From NCBI GenBank assembly GCA_016180435.1, contig JACPBG010000002.1:1-58341 (forward strand): DNA of 58,341 nt. The letters run 5' to 3'. The notes under the pieces were generated by a model. That model had not been told where the DNA came from, made no database searches, and was given only the letters and a program-made list of their open reading frames with translations. Source of the stretch: Candidatus Sungiibacteriota bacterium. GTDB lineage: Bacteria; Patescibacteriota; Minisyncoccia; Sungbacterales; HO2-52-23. Shown piece by piece: positions 10,820 through 58,176 of this stretch. Positions within the stretch are counted from its first letter, which is position 1. Each line of letters opens with the position of its first letter. The translations under genes were made by a program, and so were the position numbers.

Positions 10820-10859
10820 CTATAGAGGTTTACAGGGGTTCAATCCCTGTAGTTCAAGT

Positions 10860-14229: not shown

Positions 14230-14360
14230 AACATGCGCCCCTTTCTTTTTGTGATTTTATTTATCAATGAGCCACGCTCCTAATTTATTGTTAATCCCGC
14301 CAAATGTCAAATTCAACAAGGCATACGTAAAAGTATGCCCTGTTAAACCAAAATCCCGTA

Positions 14361-14468
14361 TTATCTATATATAATCAGCGGCAAGAGAGTAAAGGCAACC
14401 ATGGAGAGGATGCCGATGATGGAGATAACGAGCCAGATGAGGTTGAGTTTTTTGCGGTTTCGGAACAT
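14361..14468 (-). CDS. Possible 35-aa membrane peptide
   Basis: MFRNRKKLNLIWLVISIIGILSMVAFTLLPLIIYR; no clear SD. Confidence 0.2.
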   Translation of the reverse strand: MFRNRKKLNLIWLVISIIGILSMVAFTLLPLIIYR

Positions 14469-14490
14469 AATGGTGGGTGTGGGAGTTGCT

Positions 14491-14757
14491 ATTGTTACTT
14501 ATTCTTTTTTGACATGCTCACTTGCTCCTGCGGCGCGTTCGCTAAGGGTCGGGCGCGAAATTCCGCTTTGCGGAAACCAAGCCCCGTCACCAAAATTTTG
14601 ACCGTTTCTTTGCTGCCCTCGAGTCAGCTGGCGAGATAGAACCCAAGTAACGATATGGTGTTCTTCTCTCCTTGGATGGAAACGAAAGCAGCAGTCGAAA
14701 TTTGGTGCGGGGCAAGCTTTCGCGCCCTCCCATTGTCAAAAAAGAATAAGCAACAAT
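14491..14757. repeat. Long imperfect palindrome, family A (267 nt)
   Basis: Outer arms attgttacttattcttttttgaca / tgtcaaaaaagaataagcaacaat. Inner arms caccaaaattttgac / gtcgaaatttggtg. Homologous to 33090-33384. Confidence 0.8.
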
Positions 14758-14802
14758 TTAACTCTTTATTGTATAGTATATATGACTTAGGAATTAAATC
14801 AA

Positions 14803-15150
14803 ATGATCCGATTTTTCATTAATTTATTTCTTATTGTTTTGCTGGTTGCGGCCGGATACGCGGCATACAATTTGGGATATGGCGCCTGGCAATCGTGGCT
14901 GGAGTCGCGCTCCATAAAACAGCAGATTGAGGAGCTGACTGAGAAAAAAAATAATCTCGAGGCGTATTTGGCGGAATTAAAAACCGTGGAAGCGGTAAAA
15001 CGAGAGGCCAAAGAGCGTTTTAATTTGAAGCTTCCCGGGGAGGAGGTGGCGGTCGTGGTAAGTAGCGGAAGTTCCACCTTTATGGTGACTACCTCTCCGG
15101 CATCATGGCCAGCTAAGTTTTGGGGATTCGTTTCATCCTGGTTTAAATAA
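14803..15150 (+). CDS. Septum formation initiator (FtsB/DivIC-like)
   Basis: N-terminal TM helix then coiled coil (IKQQIEELTEKKNNLEAYLAELK). Confidence 0.65.
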   Translation: MIRFFINLFLIVLLVAAGYAAYNLGYGAWQSWLESRSIKQQIEELTEKKNNLEAYLAELKTVEAVKREAKERFNLKLPGEEVAVVVSSGSSTFMVTTSPASWPAKFWGFVSSWFK

Positions 15151-33089: not shown

Positions 33090-33384
33090 ATGTGGTTTTT
33101 CAACCACTCCGATTTCAGACACGACTCACGCACTCCTGCGGTGCGTTCGCTAAGGGTCGGGCGAAGTTTTTCCGTCCGCCAGTTGGCGGACGGAAAACCA
33201 AACCACGTCACCAAAATTTTGACCGTTTCCGTGCCGCCTCGAATAAGCTGGCGGGACATGCTTTGTATTTCTTAACAGATGTTCATCTCTGCTCGGATGG
33301 AAACGAAAGCGGCAGTAAAAATTTGGTGCGGGGCAAGCAACTTCGCCCTCCCATTATCTGAAATCGAAATGGTTGAAACCACAT
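33090..33384. repeat. Long imperfect palindrome, family A (295 nt)
   Basis: Outer arms atgtggtttttcaaccactccgatttcaga / tctgaaatcgaaatggttgaaaccacat; internal blocks shared with 14491-14757. Confidence 0.8.
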
Positions 33385-47240: not shown

Positions 47241-47339
47241 GATCGCGGATAGACGCGGATTTTTACTTACGCGGATAAACGCGGATAATTAAATTTATCT
47301 GCGTGAATCAGCGTATTGATCCGCGTAGATCAGCGTTTC
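47241..47339 (+). repeat. GCGGATA heptamer-repeat hairpin abutting the 16S 5' end
   Basis: Left arm has cgcggat(a) x4, right arm has atcNgcg x4-5. Confidence 0.8.
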
Positions 47340-47408
47340 TAAATGAGGATTTGATCCTGGTCCAGGATGAACGCTGGCGGCGTGGATAAGGCATGCAAGT
47401 CAAACGGG

Positions 47409-47508
47409 CACGTGCTTCGCACGGAGAACTTAGAACTAAGAACTTAGAACCAAGCAGTTTCTAAGATCTAAGTTCTAAACGCTAAGTTCTGCGCGCGGAG
47501 TGCGCGCC
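47409..47508 (+). other. 16S insertion 1 (V1/helix 6): clamp hairpins + TAGAACT heptamer hairpin
   Basis: cgtgcttcgcacgga + heptamer hairpin 47425-47490 + gcgcgcggagtgcgcgc. Confidence 0.8.
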
Positions 47509-47591
47509 AGTGGCGAACGAGTTAGTAATACCCTGGTACGTACCCCAGAGACGGGAATAACTCCGCGAAAGCGGAGCTAATACCCGATAGT

Positions 47592-47862
47592 CCCAGCACA
47601 TATTTTTGGAAATAAATAAGCGCAGTGCGCCTGCGCTCTCATCAAGAAATACTTAGTTTAAGAGAAGGGTAATGATGACGGAAGTAATTAGTACACTTAT
47701 TAATGCACTGAAAAAAGCAGTTCTCTTTTCGCTTGTATTGAGAAACTCTCGAATGAACTTCATGGTATACCCTATGTAAACGTGAAATATCTATAACTAA
47801 TTATATATAATTATAAAAATCTGTCAAGTGTTGTTAATTTGATTCCAAAAATATGTGCTGGG
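47592..47862 (+). other. 16S insertion 2 (V2 region): 271-nt AT-rich intervening sequence
   Basis: Closed by a perfect 19-bp stem: cccagcacatatttttgga / tccaaaaatatgtgctggg. Confidence 0.8.
47653..47763 (-). CDS. Speculative 36-aa hydrophobic peptide ORF antisense to 16S insertion 2
   Basis: MKFIREFLNTSEKRTAFFSALISVLITSVIITLLLN; weak SD; may be chance. Confidence 0.15.
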   Translation of the reverse strand: MKFIREFLNTSEKRTAFFSALISVLITSVIITLLLN

Positions 47863-48111
47863 TAAATCACTTAGATTGGCTCTGGGAGCGGCCTAGGTCC
47901 TATCAGCTAGTTGGCGGGGTAATGGCCCACCAAGGCAATGACGGGTAGGGGGCGTGAGAGCGCGACCCCCAACGGCGACAATGAGATACGAGTCGCACAC
48001 CTACGGGTGGCAGCAGTCAAGAACATTCGACAATGGGCGAAAGCCTGATCGAGCGACGCCGCGTGCAGGATGAAGGCCTTCGGGTCGTAAACTGCTTTTT
48101 AAGGGGAGGAA

Positions 48112-48281
48112 GCCGTGCTTCGCACGGAATGTCTAATTCCTAATTCACCTAATTCCTAATAAAATGCCCAATAAAAAAATGTCTAATGTCCAAAAACAGC
48201 TTTTGGGCTTTGGCAATTTGATATTTTGAATTTTATTAGAAATTAGAAATTAGATGTTGGAAATTTCGCGCGGAGCGCGGA
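48112..48281 (+). other. 16S insertion 3 (V3 region): same clamps as insertion 1 + TAATTCC/TTAGAAA hairpin
   Basis: 15-mer cgtgcttcgcacgga at 48114-48128, identical to 47411-47425; 3' clamp cgcgcggagcgcgg. Confidence 0.8.
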
Positions 48282-48593
48282 TTGACTGTACCCTTAGAAT
48301 AAGGCGCTGCAAACCTCGTGCCAGCAGCCGCGGTAATACGAGGGCGCCAAGCGTTATCCGGATTTATTGGGCGTAAAGGGTCTCCAGGCGGTTTGATTAG
48401 TCGGGCGTTAAATCCCGCTGCCTAACGGCGGGGCTGCGTTCGAAACGGTCAAACTAGAGGGATGGAGAGGGGATGGGAACTCACGGTGTAGGGGTGAAAT
48501 CCGTTGATATCGTGGGGAACACCAAAGGCGAAGGCACATCCCTGGCCATTTCCTGACGCTCATGAGACGAAAGCGTGGGGAGAGAATAGGATT

Positions 48594-49390
48594 GATCGCT
48601 CGTTTGCATATTGTCCGCTCAAAAACTACGGGCTGGACAAATGGAGCCGAAAACAGAACGGGAGCCCTCCGGCAGAGCCGGTTTCCCTTGTTCTGTTTTC
48701 TCACCATTTGTTAACCAGCCCTCCGTTAATTTCGCGGAGCAATACGCAAACTCGCTTATTAGAGGGATAATAAGATGTTAAAAGTATTGTTTTTTTCGGC
48801 ACTGTTTATTGTATTCGTGGCAAAAACTAACACTAGCGAAAACAGTGTTGATATTATATTCTACAGTTTTATGTCAGGAGTTTCGTTTGTCTTAGTTTTT
48901 GTTAACATTTATTTGAAACTTAAAGCGAACCGGAAGGGTATCCGGTGAGAACAACTAGTCCCTCCGATGAAAATCGGAGATAAAATTCCACTGTATCGGT
49001 GAAAGGCCTACTGCGGAAACGCAGGGTTAACGCCGAGGCAACGCTTACACAATTTTCGAACGTTAATTACTAATTTTTAATTCGTAATTAGGAATTGGCA
49101 ATTGCGTAAGCAGAGTCCGTAGAGACTGAACGTGGAACCCAGCTCTTTGTTGAAGCAGGGCAACTTGTTTGCCCCTTTAGCAAAGAACTGGTGATGTCAC
49201 AGTCCGAACTATGCAGTAATGCATAGAGCTAATCAGAAATGCGTTAGCCGGCAGCAAGTTTTGGAATTCTGGATTTTTAAATTTCTGATTTGCTTGCCCC
49301 GTAGTGAACGTGCAACGTTCTACCATCGGGGTTTAGAAATTAGAAATTCGGATTTAGAAATTCCAAATTTGTTGCGAGCAACAAATTTGT
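48594..49390 (+). mobile_element. 16S insertion 4: about 0.8-kb putative intron in the 790 loop, no homing-endonuclease ORF
   Basis: Splits the universal AGGATT|AGATACCC. Boundaries can be drawn with U before the 5' splice site and G as the last inserted nt. Confidence 0.6.
48775..48948 (+). CDS. Speculative 57-aa two-TM peptide ORF inside insertion 4
   Basis: GAGGGA 8 nt upstream of ATG; MLKVLFFSALFIVFVAKT...VSFVLVFVNIYLKLKANRKGIR. Confidence 0.2.
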   Translation: MLKVLFFSALFIVFVAKTNTSENSVDIIFYSFMSGVSFVLVFVNIYLKLKANRKGIR

Positions 49391-49751
49391 AGATACCCTA
49401 GTATTCCACGCCCTAAACGTTGCGCGCTCGCTGTTCCGAGTATCGACCCTCGGAGTGGCTAAGCTTACGCGTTAAGCGCGCCGCCTGGGAAGTACGAGCG
49501 CAAGCTTAAAACTCAAAGGAATAGACGGGAGCTCGCACAAGCGGTGGACCATGTGGTTCAATTCGACGACAACCGAGGAACCTCACCAGGGTTTGAAATT
49601 CTAATGAAGTTCCGAAGAAATTCGGAATGTCTCACAAGGACATTAGAACAGGTGATGCACGGTCCTCGTCAGTTCGTGATGTGAATTGTTCCCTTAAGTG
49701 GGGTAACGAACGCAACCCCCGTGGTATGTTATATGTGTCATACCAGACTGC

Positions 49752-49936
49752 CCCCCTCCAAGCCCGAAGGGCTTGGAGGCACAGATGTTCACAGATTTCT
49801 AACGGATTTTCACAGATCACAGATTCACACGGAAACCTTAACAGGCTACATCCGTAATTATCCGTGATCTGTGGTAATCTGTGGAATAATCTGTGTTAAT
49901 CCGTGGAAAACTCGTCATTGCGGGTTTGGAGGGGGG
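49752..49936 (+). other. 16S insertion 5 (helix 40 region): GC hairpin + CACAGAT heptamer hairpin
   Basis: ctccaagccc-gaa-gggcttggag, then cacagat repeats paired with atctgtg repeats. Confidence 0.8.
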
Positions 49937-50067
49937 AGGAAGGCGGGGATGACGTGAGATCAGCGTGTCCCTTTGATATCCTGGGCTACACACGTGGTAC
50001 AATGGCGCGTACAATGGGTTGCAAAGCCGCGAGGCGAAGCTAATCCCATAAAACGCGCCCCAGTTCA

Positions 50068-50098
<31 letters not shown>

Positions 50099-50159
50099 AG
50101 GAATCGCTAGTAAACGCGGATCAGCTACGCCGCGTTGAATACGTTCTCGAGCTTTGTAC

Positions 50160-51087
50160 TCGGGTCGCTATGCGGTTCAATAAGCGAGCAGGTTTAAATC
50201 CTGCCAAGAAAATGCAGTTTTTTGAAGCGAAATCGCAGTCCTTCGAGGGGCGACCCTCAGGATGAAGGGCGAAAGTAGCAGCTGCCAGCTTGAATATTCA
50301 TCGAGGCGCGATACAGGCGGTGACCCTGCGAGTACATGGGGAAACCACTGCATAAAATGCCTTATCGCGTATACCGAATATCGAGACGGCAGAGAACCGT
50401 TTATTGGGTTACCATAGGAGATCTTGCATAATTCTCGTAGTATATCTATACTCGAGATAGGAACGTGGATAACTTCGTTCCAATGTTATGCAAGAAGTCA
50501 GCAGAGTTCGTAGTAGCAAGAGTGATTCTAGATGCCGCAATCCGCGGCTTCGAGCGCCTCTTGCGAAGGAACAAATTCAGGCAAAAAAACTTCATCCGCA
50601 GTATATTGCGGGATTCATTGATGGCGAGGGTTCGTTCGTCGTGAGTTTCGGGCGCCATAAAACGCTCAAGCGCGGCATTGAAATCCGCGTTGAATTCACC
50701 ATCGAACTTCGCGCCGACGACAGAGAAATTCTTTATCGGATATTAAAAACCATCGGATGCGGAAAAATTTATGACGCATCATATGAACGATACGGATGGT
50801 ATCCGCATGTCAAATATAAAATCACAAGTACCAAGGATATGGAAAAATATCTGATTCCGTTTCTGGATAAAACGCCGTTACAGGCCAAGAAGCGAAAAGT
50901 ATATAGGGTATTTCGTGAAATTGTTTTGATGGTGCGGAGAAAAGAGCATTTGACCGATAAAGGATTTAAAAAGATCTTCAGATTGCGCAACGAATATCGT
51001 AAATACGGAAAGAAGCGCCTGAAAACCGCCAGGGTACGGGAAAACCGTTCGCCCGGTGGTGTGAGACAATAAGTAAAATTGATCTTA
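50160..51087 (+). mobile_element. 16S insertion 6a: putative intron with LAGLIDADG ORF
   Basis: Begins right after conserved CTTTGTAC; ORF stop is 15 nt before ATACCGCC (51088-51095). Confidence 0.65.
50488..51072 (+). CDS. LAGLIDADG homing endonuclease (single-motif type)
   Basis: YIAGFIDGEGSF motif, 194 aa, inside 16S. Confidence 0.9.
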   Translation: MQEVSRVRSSKSDSRCRNPRLRAPLAKEQIQAKKLHPQYIAGFIDGEGSFVVSFGRHKTLKRGIEIRVEFTIELRADDREILYRILKTIGCGKIYDASYERYGWYPHVKYKITSTKDMEKYLIPFLDKTPLQAKKRKVYRVFREIVLMVRRKEHLTDKGFKKIFRLRNEYRKYGKKRLKTARVRENRSPGGVRQ

Positions 51088-51095
51088 ATACCGCC

Positions 51096-52008
51096 AATTA
51101 ATAAAGTGCCCGGCAGCTTAATTGACTAGTTGGTTAAAGTCCAACCTCCCATTGCATATGGGACGTAGCCAAAAAAATAGCAGTCCACTATCCGTAAGGT
51201 TGTGGATAAAGGGCTTGAGGCAAATGGCAGCCTATGATACGATTAGAATATTGAACGATCGCCGCGGGCGGTCAGCGGGAAGTTCAATTATTTCCATCAT
51301 AGGATGCCGGGAATAGTTAATTAAGTGACCCGGGGAGATCCTAAACAGTCGAGTCATAATACTCGTTTAGGAAGTCAGCTGGCGTCATAGTACCGAGCAC
51401 TCAACCTGCACTACGCTCGTTCTGCGTTATGCGCAGTGCAAGTTGAGTGCTCGGGAAGGAGCCAACCAAAATTATGCTATCTCCTGATTATATTGTTGGA
51501 TTGACTGACGGTGAAGGTAGCTTTACCGCATATATACGGCCACCCAAGAAAGAGCATGGTTCTAAAAATTATCGGATTGAATGTCATTATTACATAAAAC
51601 TGCGTGAAGACGACCGATCACTTTTAGAAAATGTCAAAAATTTCTTTAGAACAGGACGGGTGGTATTTCAGCGGGAAAACCGGACGAATCATCATCATAT
51701 GTATCGATTTGAGGTTACGAACTTGCATGATCTGCAAAATTTAATAATTCCTTTTTTTGAAAAACATAAACTTCAAAGCAAGCGAATTAAAGATTTTGAA
51801 TTATTCAAGAAGATCGTTAAAGCGGTACTGAATAAAGAACATCAAACCGAAAATGGATTGCGAAAGATTCAACAATGGAAAAAGAAGATGCATCAATATA
51901 TGGGCTCGCCGAATACGGGAAACCCGTACGTTCGGTCTCGATATAGAAAGTCGAGGGTTCGATTAAAGAATCGGACTGGAAACGGGAAATAGACTCAATT
52001 ATCCCAAT
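51096..52008 (+). mobile_element. 16S insertion 6b: second putative intron with LAGLIDADG ORF
   Basis: ORF stop is 17 nt before conserved CCGTCACG resumes at 52009. Confidence 0.65.
51447..51992 (+). CDS. LAGLIDADG homing endonuclease (single-motif type)
   Basis: YIVGLTDGEGSF motif, 181 aa, inside 16S. Confidence 0.9.
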   Translation: MLGKEPTKIMLSPDYIVGLTDGEGSFTAYIRPPKKEHGSKNYRIECHYYIKLREDDRSLLENVKNFFRTGRVVFQRENRTNHHHMYRFEVTNLHDLQNLIIPFFEKHKLQSKRIKDFELFKKIVKAVLNKEHQTENGLRKIQQWKKKMHQYMGSPNTGNPYVRSRYRKSRVRLKNRTGNGK

Positions 52009-53140: not shown

Positions 53141-53866
53141 ATGATTAAGTGTTTGATTTGGGACGTGGCCGAAACAATTCTGGCTTATGATTTTCAAGAA
53201 GTTATGGCTAAACTTGCCCGTATTTCAGGAAAAAGTCCGGAAGAGGTTTTACATATTTTCGGCGGGGATTATTCTAATAAGTGTTCGCTCATATACAGTT
53301 TTGATGCCGGCGAGATCGAAACCGAGGAATTTATTGTTGCGGTGCGGGATTTACTTGGGATTGATCACACGGTTCCTTCGGGACTTATTATGGATATGTT
53401 TTATCATTGCCACCGGATGCCGAAAGGAACCGAATCGCTCCTCCGTTTTTTAAGAAAATCATACATTCAGGGAATTGTCTCCAATATGAATCTTTTGCAG
53501 TGGTCATATATAGAGCATGTATTTCCCATTATTTCCGATAAACGCGGCATTATGGATTTTCATCTGCTTTCATTTCGTGAAAAATTAATGAAGCCGGACC
53601 TAAAAATTTATGAGCATGCATTTCGGCGCGCCTATGACGCATACGAGACACGGAAAAACGGTTCGCTTCATTGCGAACTTAAACGCTCCAATTGTCTTTT
53701 TTTGGATGATCGGGAAGAAAATATTACGGGAGCGTTGGATTTCGGATTTCGGGCGGTTTGCGTTCAACCGGCAAGTAAAGTCGGATACTGCGGAATTTTT
53801 GAGGCATTGCGGCGGGAGGGAATAGCTGTTCCGCTATCGCGGAGCGGACATCGCAAAAGACATTAA
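53141..53866 (+). CDS. HAD-superfamily hydrolase-like protein
   Basis: N-terminal IWDVAETIL and C-terminal LFLDDREENI motifs resemble HAD motifs I and IV. Confidence 0.6.
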   Translation: MIKCLIWDVAETILAYDFQEVMAKLARISGKSPEEVLHIFGGDYSNKCSLIYSFDAGEIETEEFIVAVRDLLGIDHTVPSGLIMDMFYHCHRMPKGTESLLRFLRKSYIQGIVSNMNLLQWSYIEHVFPIISDKRGIMDFHLLSFREKLMKPDLKIYEHAFRRAYDAYETRKNGSLHCELKRSNCLFLDDREENITGALDFGFRAVCVQPASKVGYCGIFEALRREGIAVPLSRSGHRKRH

Positions 53867-53925
53867 CGCCCCGCTTTACAACGGGGATTTTTTTTCATTT
53901 TAAAAAACACCGATGGAAGTCGGTG

Positions 53926-54108
53926 CTATTGTTTTTTGCGATAAGCGCTTAAAAGATTCCTAAGCTGCTTGACGCGTTTACGTTCTTGGCGCAATTCGCC
54001 ATCGAATCTTCTGGAGATTAAACGACGCCACCAATCTGTTTCTTTGATGCACAAAATAATGATGGCGGCGAGGACAACTAAAGGTATCAGCGAAATCACG
54101 GTCTGCAT
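53926..54108 (-). CDS. Small membrane protein (60 aa)
   Basis: N-terminal TM helix, basic tail; hairpin + T-run downstream on minus strand. Confidence 0.4.
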   Translation of the reverse strand: MQTVISLIPLVVLAAIIILCIKETDWWRRLISRRFDGELRQERKRVKQLRNLLSAYRKKQ

Positions 54109-54195
54109 TTTTTAGTTCCTTTTAAGGACTTAAATTATTGTAGCATGTGAACATAAATTATGCTATAACATCCGTATGTTCTTTGAAAAATAGCG

Positions 54196-54855
54196 GTGTG
54201 TGTTATGCAAGAAAAAAAGCGGGTGTTTTGGGATATGGGAGGGGTGCTGAATAGGTTTGTTGCCGATGAATTCCTTGCCAATTTGGCGGATTTATTTCGG
54301 ATTGATGCGCTGGCAGTTGCTAAGTTCTTTTTGGATGGAGATCCAGCGTTATGGCATCGGATGGAGGGCGAGCCGGATTTTGACGGCCGAAAAATTTATG
54401 AATGTTTTATCAAACAGTTTGGACTTTCGCCGCCGCTCCGTGCTTTTTACCGGAATTTCAATACCGGGATTGTTCCCATGGAACATGAAGCAGAACTTCT
54501 GGTTTTGATGGCGGACTTGGCGCAATCCGGGGTATGTCAGGGCATAATTTCGAATATCAATTCAATCCATGCGCGTTATGTCATTAGAAATTATCAGCAA
54601 TTTTTCCGGCACATCAAGCCCCGTATGAGATTTTTCTCATATCGGATCGGGGTTCGTAAGAGCAGGTCGCCGGACGCATTTAAGAAGGTATTCGAATTTT
54701 CCAAATCAGGCCCCGTGTCTTCTTTTTTGATTGATGACAGGGATTCAAACGTTGAGGGATTCTGCAAAGCTGGCGGGACGGGAATTTTTTTCCATAGTGT
54801 TAATGAAACCCGGTATTGGCTGGAACATTACGGAGTACTGGGAGATCATAAATAA
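54196..54855 (+). CDS. HAD-superfamily hydrolase-like protein
   Basis: VFWDMGGVL motif I-like and FLIDDRDSNVEG motif IV-like. Confidence 0.6.
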   Translation: MCVMQEKKRVFWDMGGVLNRFVADEFLANLADLFRIDALAVAKFFLDGDPALWHRMEGEPDFDGRKIYECFIKQFGLSPPLRAFYRNFNTGIVPMEHEAELLVLMADLAQSGVCQGIISNINSIHARYVIRNYQQFFRHIKPRMRFFSYRIGVRKSRSPDAFKKVFEFSKSGPVSSFLIDDRDSNVEGFCKAGGTGIFFHSVNETRYWLEHYGVLGDHK

Positions 54856-54953
54856 GTATTTGCGCAGTAATTGATTACTGCGTATTTATTTTATACGATG
54901 TAAGAGTTGAAAGGTCGAAGGCCCTTTATTAGTTTAAATTGATAAATGTACCT

Positions 54954-55553
54954 ATGAATAAAAAATTAGCAATTATTGCGGCGATATCTTGCCTATTTAT
55001 TATAGGCGGAGTTTTTATGGCGAGTGCAAAAGACGACGGAGATGATGATAATGGTATAGGCCACAAAATAGAAAAAGCGGTGGAAAGCGTTGAAAAGCAT
55101 CTGAATCGCCTGCTTGAAGTAAAAGACAAGGTTTCGGATCATGATTTGAAAGAGGGTCGTTCCGGTACAAGTGTTTTAATCAACCCTGCGGGACAGGCGC
55201 GCATCACCCACGGCGAAATTGTATCAATCGCATCTTCCGGCGCTACCTTTACGGTTAAGCTTTGGGGCAAAGAGTGGCTGGTTATGACAAATTCCGATAC
55301 TAAATTTGTCGGAGCCGGAAAAGAGGTTTCATTCGGATCACTCGCGGTTGGCCATAAAGTCGATGTGTCGGGATCCATGATGACCGAATCCGGACATGAG
55401 GGACATATTATGTCGCGTCTCGTGCGCGATCGCTCGTTGGTCTCGGAAGCTAACACCGCACGGATTGAGGAGTTGAAAAAGAAAATTCAGGAACTTATGG
55501 ATCGTTTGAATAAACTTTTACAGAGCGTGGGCGCCACTTCTACAAGTCCGTAA
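54954..55553 (+). CDS. Secreted/anchored hypothetical protein with C-terminal coiled coil
   Basis: Signal anchor MNKKLAIIAAISCLFIIGGVFMASA. Confidence 0.55.
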   Translation: MNKKLAIIAAISCLFIIGGVFMASAKDDGDDDNGIGHKIEKAVESVEKHLNRLLEVKDKVSDHDLKEGRSGTSVLINPAGQARITHGEIVSIASSGATFTVKLWGKEWLVMTNSDTKFVGAGKEVSFGSLAVGHKVDVSGSMMTESGHEGHIMSRLVRDRSLVSEANTARIEELKKKIQELMDRLNKLLQSVGATSTSP

Positions 55554-55571
55554 ATTCTGAAAAATATATGT

Positions 55572-55600
55572 AAAACACCCCGCATAATGCGGGGTGTTTT
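55572..55600. terminator. Bidirectional terminator
   Basis: aacaccccgc-ataat-gcggggtgtt flanked by AAAA and TTTT. Confidence 0.8.
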
Positions 55601-55610
55601 ATTATATTAA

Positions 55611-55640
55611 TGGGTGTGCCAGGGATTGAACCCCGCACTA
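55611..55640 (-). pseudogene. tRNA 3'-end-like fragment (T arm + acceptor strand CACACCC-A)
   Basis: Minus strand reads CGGGG-TTCAATC-CCTGG-CACACCC-A; no matching 5' half within normal tRNA distance. Confidence 0.4.
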
Positions 55641-55808
55641 CAATTTCGACTGTTGCTACTTCATCATTCGGCAAAAGGAAATTATACTTTTCGTTTTGGT
55701 GTTGATCTCGCCCGCTCATTCGGGGCAACACGATAAAGTTGAAATTGAGTGACGGGGCAGGCCTATGACCTCGTCATTATCAGCTTGTCCCCCACTAACT
55801 GAATTATA

Positions 55809-55879
55809 TGGGCACGGATGGAATTAAACCATCGGCCTAGTAATTATCAGTTACGCGCTCTATTCACCCTCCCACCTTT
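55809..55879 (-). pseudogene. tRNA-Ile(GAU)-like 3' piece preceded by a GC-rich 13-mer tag
   Basis: Minus strand: AAAGGTGGGAGGG-TGAATA-GAGC-G-CGTAA-CTGATAA-TTACT-AGGCC-GATGG-TTTAATT-CCATC-CGTGCCC-A. Confidence 0.45.
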
Positions 55880-55886
55880 CATGATT

Positions 55887-55924
55887 TGGGTGTACTAGGG
55901 ATTGAACCTAGGACCTCGTCATTA
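55887..55924 (-). pseudogene. tRNA-Ile-like 3' piece (from the anticodon loop to acceptor TACACCC-A)
   Basis: Minus strand: TAATGACG-AGGTC-CTAGG-TTCAATC-CCTAG-TACACCC-A. Matching 5' strand GGGTGTA lies inside 55950-56051. Confidence 0.45.
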
Positions 55925-55949
55925 CTTGCCCCGTACCAAAATATGCGAT

Positions 55950-56051
55950 TGCGCGCACTAGGGATCGAACCTAGGACCTCGTCATTATCAGTGACGCGCT
56001 CTGAGCTATACACCCGTAAAAAGGTGGGAGGGCCAGCTGAGCTATGCGCGC
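55950..56051 (-). tRNA. tRNA-Ile(GAU)-like gene with a 37-nt D loop (about 28-nt insertion)
   Basis: GCGCGCA/TGCGCGC acceptor, GCTC/GAGC D stem, CGTCA-CTGATAA-TGACG anticodon arm, CTAGG-TTCGATC-CCTAG T arm; function uncertain. Confidence 0.5.
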
Positions 56052-56205
56052 TTGAAAGCCACAATAAATAGTGTAGATGAAAATTAGTAATATTGCAACT
56101 TAAAAAACGCGGTTCGGTTAAAATTGGATCAAGGTGGAAGGATATACTGGGTGTGCATAACCTGTTGGTTGATTTTTATTAATTTTTAAGCTAATTTAGT
56201 TGAAT

Positions 56206-56364
56206 ATGGCAGATACAGCTTATTGCGTTAAGTGCCGCGAAAAGCGCGACATGAAAGACGGCAAAGAGGTTTCAATGCCGGGCAAGGGCGGCGAGCGCCG
56301 CGCCCTGACCGGTACCTGCGCTGTCTGCGGCACGAAAATGTTTAAAATATTAGGAAAGAAATAA
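56206..56364 (+). CDS. Small zinc-ribbon protein (DUF5679-like), 52 aa
   Basis: MADTAYCVKCREKRDMKDGKEV...GTCAVCGTKMFKILGKK, two CxxC pairs; below ORF-track cutoff. Confidence 0.5.
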   Translation: MADTAYCVKCREKRDMKDGKEVSMPGKGGERRALTGTCAVCGTKMFKILGKK

Positions 56365-56567
56365 GCCACGGAGCTTTTTCTTTTCATTACCCCGGCGGTC
56401 GATCGGCGGGTTAAAAATTTAATAATTTTTATGGTGTAAGAGTATCATTCTGCGCAAGTTTTGCGTAAGGTTTTGCGTCTGTTTCGCGATGGGAAAATGT
56501 ACCGTCAAACCGGCTCAAAACAAAACGCTAAACATACGCAAGATACTGGATAAACCAATTTAAATAT

Positions 56568-56849
56568 ATGGCAAAAATGTCGAAGTCCGAGGTCCTGAAT
56601 GCCCTTGCGGAAAAAACAGGACTTAAGAGAAAAGAGGTCGCATCCGTTATAGAAAATATGATTGAACTGGCTTACAAGCAGGTAAAGTCCAGCGGCGAAT
56701 TTCCGATCCATGGATTAGGAAAGTTTGTTAAGGTCCATCGGAAAGAGCGGATGGGCCGCAATCCGGCAACCGGCGCATCTATTAAGATTCCGGCCAAGAC
56801 CGTAGTAAAATTCCGGGTGGCAAAGGCGGCCAAGGAAGCCGTGCTTTAA
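56568..56849 (+). CDS. hup: DNA-binding protein HU
   Basis: HU/IHF pattern ...GFGKF-like GLGKFVKVHRKERMGRNPATG...VKFRVAK. Confidence 0.9.
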   Translation: MAKMSKSEVLNALAEKTGLKRKEVASVIENMIELAYKQVKSSGEFPIHGLGKFVKVHRKERMGRNPATGASIKIPAKTVVKFRVAKAAKEAVL

Positions 56850-56870
56850 TCCAAAAGAAATATTTCAAAT

Positions 56871-56900
56871 CAAAATCTCCGGCATATGCCGGAGATTTTG
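56871..56900. terminator. Bidirectional terminator
   Basis: Perfect palindrome aaaatctccggcat/atgccggagatttt. Confidence 0.8.
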
Positions 56901-56908
56901 ATTGCCAT

Positions 56909-57190
56909 CTATGGAGCAATTTCAACTCCGCGCCAGAATGCGAATCGTCCTTTGATTTGTTTGGCCGCTTCCGTCGGTTCCGGATAGACCCAGGCGGCAT
57001 CCTCGTTAATCTCACCATCAACCACGACGTTATAATAATCCGCCACTCCTTTCCAATGGCACTTGTAGGTTCTGCCGCTTTTTTGCAGATATTCCATCTT
57101 AACCGACTCCGGGGGAAAATAGTGATTATTTTCCACTATTATCGTATTATTACTCTCGGCAATTGTTTTATTTCTCCATGTGGTTCGCAT
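56909..57190 (-). CDS. DUF427 domain protein
   Basis: WRNKTIAES...VENNHYFPPESV...CHWKGVADYYNV...AAWVYPEP pattern. Confidence 0.75.
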   Translation of the reverse strand: MRTTWRNKTIAESNNTIIVENNHYFPPESVKMEYLQKSGRTYKCHWKGVADYYNVVVDGEINEDAAWVYPEPTEAAKQIKGRFAFWRGVEIAP

Positions 57191-57285
57191 GCCTAATATT
57201 ATACTCTTGGTTGGTTGTATTTACAAAAAAATGTATCCATGCTAAGCTCCAAACGGTACTTTTATTTGGAAGTAAGGAGCATAAA

Positions 57286-58176
57286 ATGAGCCTATTGGAA
57301 AAATTAGTGCAAGAGCATCCGCTTTCCGCGGATATGGAAAGTGCCGAAACAATTGAAGCTAAACAGGCGGTTTTGGATACCATCACGCCTGACGTTATGC
57401 GGCAACTTGAATCGCAGCCGCATGAAATATGCCATCATATGGCCGCGGTTTACACCAAGACCGTTGATGAATACCTGAAAACCAAGCACAATCGGGATAT
57501 CATTGACGAATTGGCGCCTTTCATGGATATGCTGCCCAACGGCGCGGGCGTGTTGGATGTGGGATGCGGACCCGGCCGGGATACACTTTTTATGTCGGTA
57601 GCCGATCAAAATTTCCGCCTGGATTGGATGGGCCGGGAGCGTGATGGAAAAACCACGCGCGAAAAGTATGCTGTTCCGAAAAAGGTCTTTAAGGTTGTCG
57701 GAATTGATGTGTCCGAAGGCATGCTGGAACGGGCAAATAAGAGGCGGTTGGCGCTTGAAGATTTACTCCTTTTAGATCCTTTTGAAGTATATCCGTTTTT
57801 TCTTTACGCGGATATGCATGCCTTTGTGGGCGGAATGTTACAAGGTTTTGACGGCATCTGGTCATGTACTTCTTTGTTCACACATACGCCGTATGGTTTG
57901 CTGGAGACCGCAATGAATTCGGTATCCCAGGCTTTGAAATCCGGAGGAATCTTCTTTGCCAGCTACACCAACGGGCGCGGTGGAAAGTACGATAACTTAA
58001 GAGTTTCCAGAACCGGCGAGATAAAATATTTCTCCCAGCCGGATCCGGATGAAATAAAAGCGCTTGCCGGAAAATTCGGCTTAATTCTGACCCAGGAGTC
58101 ATTTAGTGACTTTGAGTTGAATGGCAAGGTGATCAAAAAGGATCTTTTTGCCTCGCAATTTTTCCGCAAAGAATAG
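57286..58176 (+). CDS. Class I SAM-dependent methyltransferase
   Basis: VLDVGCGPGRD motif I; AAGGAG upstream of the internal Met. Confidence 0.8.
   Translation: MSLLEKLVQEHPLSADMESAETIEAKQAVLDTITPDVMRQLESQPHEICHHMAAVYTKTVDEYLKTKHNRDIIDELAPFMDMLPNGAGVLDVGCGPGRDTLFMSVADQNFRLDWMGRERDGKTTREKYAVPKKVFKVVGIDVSEGMLERANKRRLALEDLLLLDPFEVYPFFLYADMHAFVGGMLQGFDGIWSCTSLFTHTPYGLLETAMNSVSQALKSGGIFFASYTNGRGGKYDNLRVSRTGEIKYFSQPDPDEIKALAGKFGLILTQESFSDFELNGKVIKKDLFASQFFRKE

Follow-up and report, generated by a model that had tools for sequence, protein, structure and literature searches.

Nested tRNA-Ile(GAU) copies on the minus strand

We analyzed a 58,341-nt stretch of DNA from a Candidatus Sungiibacteriota bacterium (contig JACPBG010000002.1 of assembly GCA_016180435.1, positions 1 to 58,341), referred to here as the window, and an array of tRNA-Ile(GAU) pieces that lies on its minus strand at 56051-55611. 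Coordinates are window positions, tRNA position numbers are cloverleaf positions 1-76, and L-numbers denote the contigs or loci compared. In the original prediction, made from the sequence alone, the locus was described as interleaved tRNA-Ile(GAU) pieces with complementary GC-rich tags, and every piece and both tag pairs were found where they had been placed when the sequence was re-read. The minus strand of 56051-55950 reads GCGCGCA TA GCTC, a D loop of 37 nt, and then GAGC G CGTCA CTGATAA TGACG AGGTC CTAGG TTCGATC CCTAG TGCGCGC A. The acceptor, anticodon and T arms are those of a perfect tRNA-Ile(GAU), with GCGCGCA facing TGCGCGC and CTGATAA lying between CGTCA and TGACG, as had been claimed. 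The 37-nt D loop contains the 5' start of a second tRNA (GGGTGTATAGCTC), and the partner 3' portion assigned to it, ending in the strand TACACCC, was confirmed at 55924-55887; GGGTGTA and TACACCC form seven of seven acceptor pairs.

The array was parsed in full into four nested or adjacent tRNA-Ile copies (A-D) with matched arms. Each older copy is split by an insert with inverted-repeat ends, and the "tags" are those ends; the original observation that the tags, by their complementarity, connect particular 5' pieces with particular 3' pieces was right and proved to be the key to parsing the locus. The nesting order is C5' (B5' (A) B3') C3', and all of the tRNA-Ile pieces lie within 441 nt on the same strand, upstream of one strong hairpin resembling an intrinsic terminator, which closes the array (55571-55601, minus strand; 15-nt perfect arms, 14 pairs and then a T-rich tail).

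Copy C begins with a 5' piece of the long D-loop type, positions 1-19 (GCGCGCATAGCTCAGCTGG, 56033-56051); in L150, the 5' piece likewise runs to G19 and is followed by a left arm. In the window an insert interrupts the D loop of copy C, and its left arm CCCTCCCACCTTT (56020-56032) leads to copy B through a leader that we read as TTAC (56016-56019). The other end of this insert lies at 55863-55886, where a trailer (AATCATG) precedes the right arm AAAGGTGGGAGGG, the second tag of the original prediction, and a tail (TGAA) follows; comparable tails of D-loop inserts are TAAA in L150 and TGAAG in L142 and L155. The two arms (55867-55879 and 56020-56032) form a 13-nt inverted repeat that is 100% complementary, with a duplex energy of -27 kcal/mol, and a perfect inverted repeat of at least 13 nt appeared in 5 of 500 Markov shuffles of the 1.1-kb region (p ~0.01). 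The 3' piece of copy C (positions 20-76, 55809-55862) is decayed. The A30:T40 change and the T loop TTTAATT noted for the third piece (55860-55809) were both confirmed, and the piece also has a C27-T43 mismatch and the acceptor strand CGTGCCC. The acceptor strands of the tag-linked pieces had been said not to match; GCGCGCA and CGTGCCC do carry two mismatches but are not wholly unmatched, as they form four Watson-Crick pairs and one G-T pair.

Within the insert in copy C, the window retains a copy B 5' piece cut to positions 1-15 (56001-56015) and, directly after it, positions 22-76 of the innermost copy A (55950-56000). The trailer, right arm ATCGCATATTTTGGTACGGGG and CAAG tail of the innermost insert, or cassette, follow at 55925-55949, and then the 3' piece of copy B (positions 36-76, TAATGACG...TACACCCA, 55887-55924), whose 35/36 breakpoint recurs in relatives. 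The arm family of this cassette is shared with L129, L139, L137 and L152. We located the sequence absent from the window in L006, a Logan read-assembly contig (SRR12113432_925589) that represents the same organism in another sample. From 56016 onward it agrees with the window at every position, and it carries 58 extra nt (L006 positions 1-100 against window 55974-56015). On the minus strand it starts with C5' (1-19), the left arm CCCTCCCACCTTT, TTAC, B5' (1-35, ending CACTGA) and the left arm CCCCGATACCAAAAATAT; the composite with the window continues with a complete tRNA A, ATCGC ATATTTTGGTACGGGG CAAG, B3' (36-76), AATCATG, the right arm AAAGGTGGGAGGG, TGAA and C3' (20-76). L006 supplies positions 16-35 of B5', the left arm CCCCGATACCAAAAATAT that partners ATCGCATATTTTGGTACGGGG and is seen in L006 only, and positions 1-21 of copy A. 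The layout of L006 indicates that tRNA A lies within a hairpin-ended insert splitting B exactly between anticodon positions 35 and 36, and that B plus its insert lies inside a second hairpin-ended insert splitting C in the D loop. Copy B completed with L006 is a perfect cloverleaf, and its arms pair over ~13 bp across 15-18 nt (duplex -18.9 kcal/mol).

Only the 3' part of copy D (positions 32-76) is left; its 5' piece and left arm are lost. It is abutted at 31/32 by the right arm (...GTGGGGGACAAG) and tail of a further cassette (...TAGTGGGGGACAAG, 55784-55808), a junction type (...GGTGAGGGACAAG/CTGA) that also occurs in L153 and L142. The first part of copy D (positions 32-53, CTGATAATGACGAGGTCATAGG, 55762-55783) corresponds to the predicted fourth piece at 55783-55767, which was present but is longer than the 17 nt assigned to it, extending to 55762. 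A 131-nt hairpin-ended insert of opposite polarity (CCTG + CCCCGTCACTCAATTTCAAC ... GTCGAAATTGTAGTGCGGGG, 55631-55761; duplex -24.5 kcal/mol) splits copy D at 53/54, between T stem and T loop, and inserts of the same type occupy the same site in L138, L141 and L148. The second part (positions 54-76, TTCAATCCCTGGCACACCCA, 55611-55630) falls in the fifth predicted piece (55640-55611), also present. The 8-nt tag pair (55752-55759 and 55927-55934) is weak when taken alone; both of its members represent the conserved end motif of the insert family, CGGGGCARG. Upstream of the array, at 56126-56156 on the minus strand, a sequence (GCACACCCA) that matches the 3' end of copy D is followed by one resembling a left arm (CCTTCCACCTT) and is probably a further relic.

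ARAGORN, one of the checks suggested with the original prediction, and Rfam called a single tRNA at 55950-56015 (66 nt, anticodon at position 27, 47.1 bits). This call is a chimera of the second 5' start and the body of the first tRNA, with a truncated D arm, and the ARAGORN intron mode recovered no interrupted copy. In the L006-plus-window composite, ARAGORN called a normal 74-nt tRNA-Ile. The 58 nt lost in the window allele extend from the D loop of B to the D loop of A, between flanks that share 2-nt microhomology only, and the junction reads GCGCTCT/GAGCTATACACCC in the window versus GCGCTCT/ACCACTGAGCTAT in L006. A simple repeat collapse was ruled out for the window allele, since a collapse would keep TGGTAG.

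At every 40-nt probe the window was matched exactly by five independent Logan contigs, each from a different sample (SRR4343430 and four SRR121134xx runs), and the two longest reach 56002 and span the entire 3' fragment array, showing that this array is not an invention of the assembly. The Logan contigs stop at or beside the point where the window and L006 alleles diverge, which suggests that both alleles coexist in the sampled populations. A probe of the window tag plus 5' piece had 0 exact matches in Joint Genome Institute metagenome contigs, and look-ups of two spurious open reading frames (ORFs) spanning 56002/56003 gave no record.

The same layout in other Patescibacteria

We scanned GTDB species genomes for the anticodon arm and obtained at least 120 loci, mostly from Patescibacteria. 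Among the GTDB matches listed, 10 of 120 had tRNA-Ile pieces broken at 35/36 beside an intact gene, and no close relative of the window was present, the rRNA alone being matched (70-80%). Metagenomes were scanned with the right-arm junction pattern GGGCARG/TAATGACGAGGTC; 28 of the 30 loci returned are nested tRNA-Ile loci. The same junction pattern had 0 matches in viral contigs, which gives no sign of a phage vector. The nested design, consisting of an outer 5' piece ending at position 35, a left arm, an intact inner tRNA-Ile, a right arm and an outer 3' piece from position 36, is shared by ~35 other Patescibacteria loci, and an intact inner tRNA-Ile lies between paired arms in all nested loci with enough sequence (~26). 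The original prediction had considered an integrase or att-site history in relatives; the relatives show nested copies with inverted-repeat arms, which fit a classical att history poorly, and no integrase was noticed beside their nests, where no search was aimed at one.

Complete outer tRNAs were rebuilt by spliced-alignment parsing, or by hand in the case of L138, and they contain one insert (L136, L130 and L146), two (L106, L139, L132, L150, L137 and L134), three (L042) or five (L138). Two arm families were recognized, CCCGCCTGCC... / ...GGCGGGCAGG and CCCCGYACYAAAATTT... / ...AAATTTAGTRCGGGG plus CARG, the second of which includes the inner cassette of the window. The leader of the inner tRNA is complementary to the discriminator, CCA and trailer, which makes the entire insert a single long imperfect palindrome that carries the tRNA at its tip. 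Downstream of the tRNA-Ile nests, a tRNA-Phe(GAA) is nested likewise in L134, L136, L143 and L149, with inserts after D-loop G19. L149 also combines an intact tRNA-Val with an adjacent tRNA-Val-like copy that is interrupted, and in L136 the intact tRNA-Pro gene is followed by a degenerate, interrupted copy; these cases indicate that nesting is not confined to tRNA-Ile.

The outer copies form a decay series of nine that are flawless, six with defects and about ten that are truncated, and the defects include changes at invariant positions (A14G twice), acceptor mismatches and stem deletions. Inner and outer tRNAs often differ from each other while each is internally consistent (L130, L146, L139, L132 and L137). 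An identical tRNA sequence forms the outer copy of L130 and the two copies, inner and outer, of L106, which fits successive replacement by incoming copies. A second broken type, found in L008, L101, L117 and L046, consists of positions 1-28 (or 15-28), a 14-nt GC palindrome (CCCGCCGCGGCGGG or CTCGCCTAGGCGAG) standing in for positions 29-35, and then position 36 onward.

In L008 and L101, an ORF of 86 aa lies directly 3' of the intact tRNA-Ile and matches the Pfam GIY-YIG family (E about 6e-15). The 3' end of this ORF reads through a D-arm-like segment and the 14-nt palindrome, and its stop codon is the TAA of a displaced 36-76 piece, right after a GC hairpin. L117 has two related GIY-YIG-like ORFs upstream of the intact tRNA-Ile, each preceded by a broken tRNA copy; the one translated is 94 aa long, and the second is 65% identical over the 86-aa query in tblastn. 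A GIY-YIG-like ORF was also recognized by eye in the tRNA-Phe nest of L134.

We compared the arms of these loci on both strands. Mean duplex energies were -22.70 kcal/mol for the sense strand versus -22.78 kcal/mol for the antisense strand (p = 0.65), and G-U pairs numbered 19 and 24, respectively. No RNA-strand asymmetry was detected in either duplex energy or G-U counts, in a test that is weak for arms of which many copies carry family-conserved mismatches. The equal energies suggest that the arms behave as DNA inverted repeats, and the hairpins occur in both polarities. Inserts at 35/36 and 28/29 abut the near-palindromic heptamer TCACTGA on opposite strands, and the heptamer is interrupted or replaced by the inserts; the D-loop insert sites resemble it (TCAGTGG or CAGCTGG). 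A single target consensus for all insert sites was rejected, as only 35/36 and 28/29 share TCACTGA and the T-loop and other sites do not fit.

Related hairpins elsewhere in the window

The end motif CGGGGCARG occurs eight times in the window against 0.85 expected, a count reached in none of 100 shuffles; the 16S rRNA gene and a twice-repeated hairpin element are among its locations. Five sites belong to recognizable hairpin-ended elements and three (1766, 9638 and 45064) have no obvious partner arm. A multi-level hairpin element of ~270 nt is present twice on the plus strand in intergenic DNA (14491-14757 and 33098-33378). Its inner stem belongs to the arm family of the tRNA cassettes (CCCCGTCACCAAAATTT / AAATTTGGTGCGGGG + CAAG), its cargo of ~90 nt is conserved with compensatory changes between the two copies, and its outer stems differ in sequence between the copies with pairing kept. 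A search of 14350-14850 against Rfam gave nothing significant for this element. No cognate transposase for repetitive extragenic palindromic (REP) sequences, RAYT or other, was noticed in the window, in which no search was aimed at one.

The 16S rRNA gene (47339-50204, plus strand) is 2866 nt long against a model of 1533 positions. Its insertions include one of ~175 nt near model position 1157, and a hairpin of the same family as the tRNA inserts (CTTG + CCCCGTAGTGAACG...CGTTCTACCATCGGGG, rRNA sense) lies at ~49281-49340, just before model position ~760. Just downstream of the 16S gene on the plus strand are two LAGLIDADG ORFs (50488-51072, Pfam E 8e-20, and 51447-51992, E 4e-18) and a match to group II intron D1-D4 (50458-50571). 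No 23S rRNA match at the Rfam gathering score was found anywhere in the window. A separate hairpin at 10820-10850 on the plus strand (TACAGGG GTTCAAT CCCTGTA) resembles a tRNA T arm, a motif whose count is at chance level (4 versus 2.2 expected).

Origin of the nested copies

We consider it probable that the tRNA-Ile stack represents the relics of repeated DNA-level insertion of a cassette into the resident tRNA-Ile gene. The sequences compared show how the copies are nested, the arm families, the decay of the outer copies, the association with GIY-YIG genes in relatives and the return of the layout in several taxa and for several tRNA species; insertion at the DNA level, the nuclease as its driver and the loss of function of the outer copies are inferred from them. 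The cassette would be a small selfish DNA, a long imperfect palindrome flanking a complete tRNA-Ile gene, with a C-rich left arm and a G-rich right arm as its ends, often with a 4-nt tail (CAAG or CAGG); in some relatives the arms may also enclose the gene for the 86-aa GIY-YIG nuclease. It would enter a target tRNA gene without target duplication, usually between anticodon positions 35 and 36 and alternatively in the D loop after G19, splitting the old gene into 5' and 3' pieces while the tRNA of the cassette takes over. The new tRNA could be targeted in turn, and repeated insertions would give the Russian-doll order; smaller, cargo-less hairpins of the same family may later accumulate in outer pieces that have become dispensable. 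For the window, the tags would be cassette arms and the outer pieces pseudogene relics, in an allele that would have lost a further 58 nt and been left with a chimeric tRNA with a truncated D arm. In the full-text literature searched, neither nested nor interrupted tRNA genes are described for bacteria of the candidate phyla radiation (CPR), and the agent behind these tRNA insertions is apparently undescribed so far.

Several observations weigh against repeated cassette insertion. No GIY-YIG sequence was detected in the window by tblastn, Pfam scans of the seven neighboring ORFs (53141-58176) found no integrase or transposase, and most cassettes of the relatives also have no ORF; the proposed driver comes from the relatives only. 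The junction 56002/56003 has no independent coverage, and the window allele has no canonical tRNA-Ile by ARAGORN or Rfam, which is awkward for relics unless a copy exists elsewhere in the genome or the allele is minor or defective. An RNA-level or single-strand route would also be compatible with precise, duplication-free insertion at loops of the folded tRNA. Several outer copies carry two to five inserts and yet have no flaw (five in L138, three in L042), and the outer exons are identical in the close pairs L042/L097 and L142/L153, in which adjacent spacers or hairpins differ at 3-5 positions. Flawless exons beside divergent hairpins would need either very fast insertion or some constraint.

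Alternatively, the outer copies could be functional intron-containing or split tRNAs, transcribed as one RNA in which the arms join the outer exons and a bacterial activity splices out the inserts, the inner tRNA among them, in the manner of archaeal multi-intron tRNAs or the split tRNAs of Nanoarchaeum. We regard this as unlikely, even though the arms sit exactly at the exon ends, the joined exons give perfect cloverleaves in copy B (with L006) and nine relatives, and the exons of outer copies with three to five inserts are identical to the inner tRNA (L042 and L138). The insert sites are also loops of the tRNA fold (D, anticodon and T loops), a single upstream region and a single strong terminator enclose the entire array, the window allele has no uninterrupted canonical tRNA-Ile, and a hairpin of the same type lies inside a 16S rRNA gene that is itself presumably functional. 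However, minimum-free-energy folds of five outer pre-tRNAs did not predict a bulge-helix-bulge (two 3-nt bulges 4 bp apart); the arm helix is stacked on the anticodon stem with irregular loops, and of the two sites the 5' one lies at the base of this helix and the 3' one beyond the 4-nt tail. The intact inner copy in every nested relative with enough sequence makes splicing unnecessary. Many outer copies lack an exon or are changed at invariant positions or in stems (A14G, U33C, stem deletions), two acceptor mismatches and the T loop TTTAATT mark the tag-linked copy C of the window, and the arms have no sense-strand bias, with hairpins in both polarities.

Bacteria are not known to have a splicing endonuclease that acts on introns of this kind, and the literature searched linked neither a splicing endonuclease (EndA) nor an RtcB-type ligase to CPR bacteria. 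We think it quite unlikely that some Patescibacteria truly splice hairpin-ended inserts from tRNA precursors and keep the interrupted outer genes functional. Were it so, the view that bacteria lack tRNA introns other than self-splicing ones would be overturned, and a protein-dependent or otherwise new bacterial tRNA splicing pathway would follow, with tRNA genes nested in tRNA introns.

The layout had been likened in the original prediction to the trans-spliced split tRNA genes of Nanoarchaeum equitans; the tri-split tRNAs of Caldivirga maquilingensis (Fujishima et al. 2009, as cited in PMC10714607) are a related case. As in those tRNAs, the 5' and 3' pieces here adjoin mutually complementary GC-rich sequences. 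When joined, the pieces of copy B (with L006) give a perfect cloverleaf, and those of the tag-linked copy C give one with two acceptor mismatches, a C27-T43 mismatch and the T loop TTTAATT. Halves of the Nanoarchaeum type are encoded by distinct, widely spaced genes, each with a promoter of its own. The pieces here, in contrast, adjoin one another in a single orientation and surround an intact copy of the same tRNA in nested order; no bulge-helix-bulge is predicted and the outer copies decay. A split gene of the Nanoarchaeum type is the sole source of its tRNA, whereas an intact inner tRNA-Ile is present in L006 and in every adequately covered nested relative. The host is bacterial by its 16S model match, HU and DUF5679, unlike the archaeal hosts of split tRNAs, and the trans-splicing proposal is not upheld.

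Archaeal multi-intron tRNAs and the mobile tRNA introns of Thermoproteales (Fujishima et al. 2010, as cited in PMC10714607) offer a second comparison. They resemble the present case in having short inserts, here up to five per tRNA gene, at non-canonical positions (D, anticodon and T loops), and in insert families that apparently spread between sites and tRNA species. The archaeal introns are defined by the bulge-helix-bulge cut by EndA, a geometry absent here, and differ from the hairpins described above, which occur in both polarities and always have an intact copy nested inside. We know of no archaeal tRNA-intron insert that carries a whole tRNA gene.

Scars of repeated site-specific recombination at a tRNA-Ile gene were the other explanation offered in the original prediction, which rated the two as equally good, and the idea of repeated site-specific events at this gene survives in spirit. 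Its classical form, in which integrase-borne prophages or islands entered repeatedly at the tRNA-Ile anticodon loop, each with a replacement 3' half, and were later deleted to leave tandem 3' fragments, is an improbable account of the array. Integrative elements at tRNA genes reportedly leave displaced 3' fragments (for example Williams 2002; Prochlorococcus islands), and the anticodon loop is known as one of the sublocations at which integrases break tRNA genes. The window does have direct repeats of the tRNA 3' part, starting from the anticodon loop, downstream of the gene, and L008 has two tandem units of ~300 nt that each end in a 36-76 copy. Recombination at att sites nevertheless fits poorly, because 5' pieces are displaced upstream as well, in a mirror order that it does not produce, because the inserts are tiny (inserts ~30-130 nt, spacers 25-131 nt) with paired inverted-repeat ends and are not island remnants, and because no integrase or other recombinase is encoded by the seven neighboring ORFs scanned (53141-58176). 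In addition, the ORF in relatives encodes a GIY-YIG nuclease and not a recombinase, and the same hairpin ends are found at D-loop, 28/29 and T-loop positions. An assembly artefact or chance, with mis-joined reads from the tRNA-Ile genes of several strains and coincidental tags, is hardly credible: the junction 56002/56003 is unconfirmed, a second allele exists and the read-assembly contigs all break within the array, but five contigs from five samples match every probe and two reach 56002, L006 reproduces the sequence from 56016 onward, the same architecture is present in ~35 unrelated assemblies and a 13-nt perfect inverted repeat has p ~0.01.

The proposed cassette has points in common with other mobile DNA. 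SegB of phage T4 is a free-standing GIY-YIG homing endonuclease beside tRNA genes. In relatives of the window a small GIY-YIG gene likewise adjoins tRNA genes, the cassette keeps tRNA function through the tRNA sequence that it carries, and spread by cleavage and repair is plausible by analogy. Unlike SegB, the cassette lies inside its target tRNA gene with a complete replacement tRNA between inverted-repeat arms, and most cassette copies, including those of the window, have no ORF. The cassettes resemble REP sequences, REPINs and miniature inverted-repeat transposable elements (MITEs) as GC-rich imperfect palindromes with conserved termini and many copies, one of them inside the 16S rRNA gene of the window. 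We are not aware of a REP or MITE with a whole tRNA as cargo and a strong preference for the homologous tRNA gene, or of any cassette with a whole tRNA between inverted-repeat arms that inserts into the anticodon loop of a homologue. The rRNA genes of CPR bacteria are riddled with insertions and homing-endonuclease genes (PMC10714607, PMC8172020). The insertions described there are group I or II introns with LAGLIDADG genes, whereas those reported here are hairpin cassettes in tRNA genes.

The window is a decayed, partly deleted example, and the main interest lies in the family that it revealed. Precise, scarless, loop-directed insertion of this kind could be of practical interest as a tool, and cassette insertion would account for unusual tRNA calls in CPR assemblies and for contigs that break at tRNA loci. 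Mobile inserts are known to have invaded the rRNA genes of CPR bacteria, and cassette insertion would extend this to their tRNA genes; it would also provide a route for exchange of tRNA genes between lineages, the inner and outer copies often being different versions of the same tRNA. If the stacks are indeed the relics of repeated insertion, the element enters an essential tRNA gene that is present in one copy and avoids a lethal outcome because it brings a complete replacement tRNA with it, with Russian-doll tRNA stacks in small-genome bacteria as the result.

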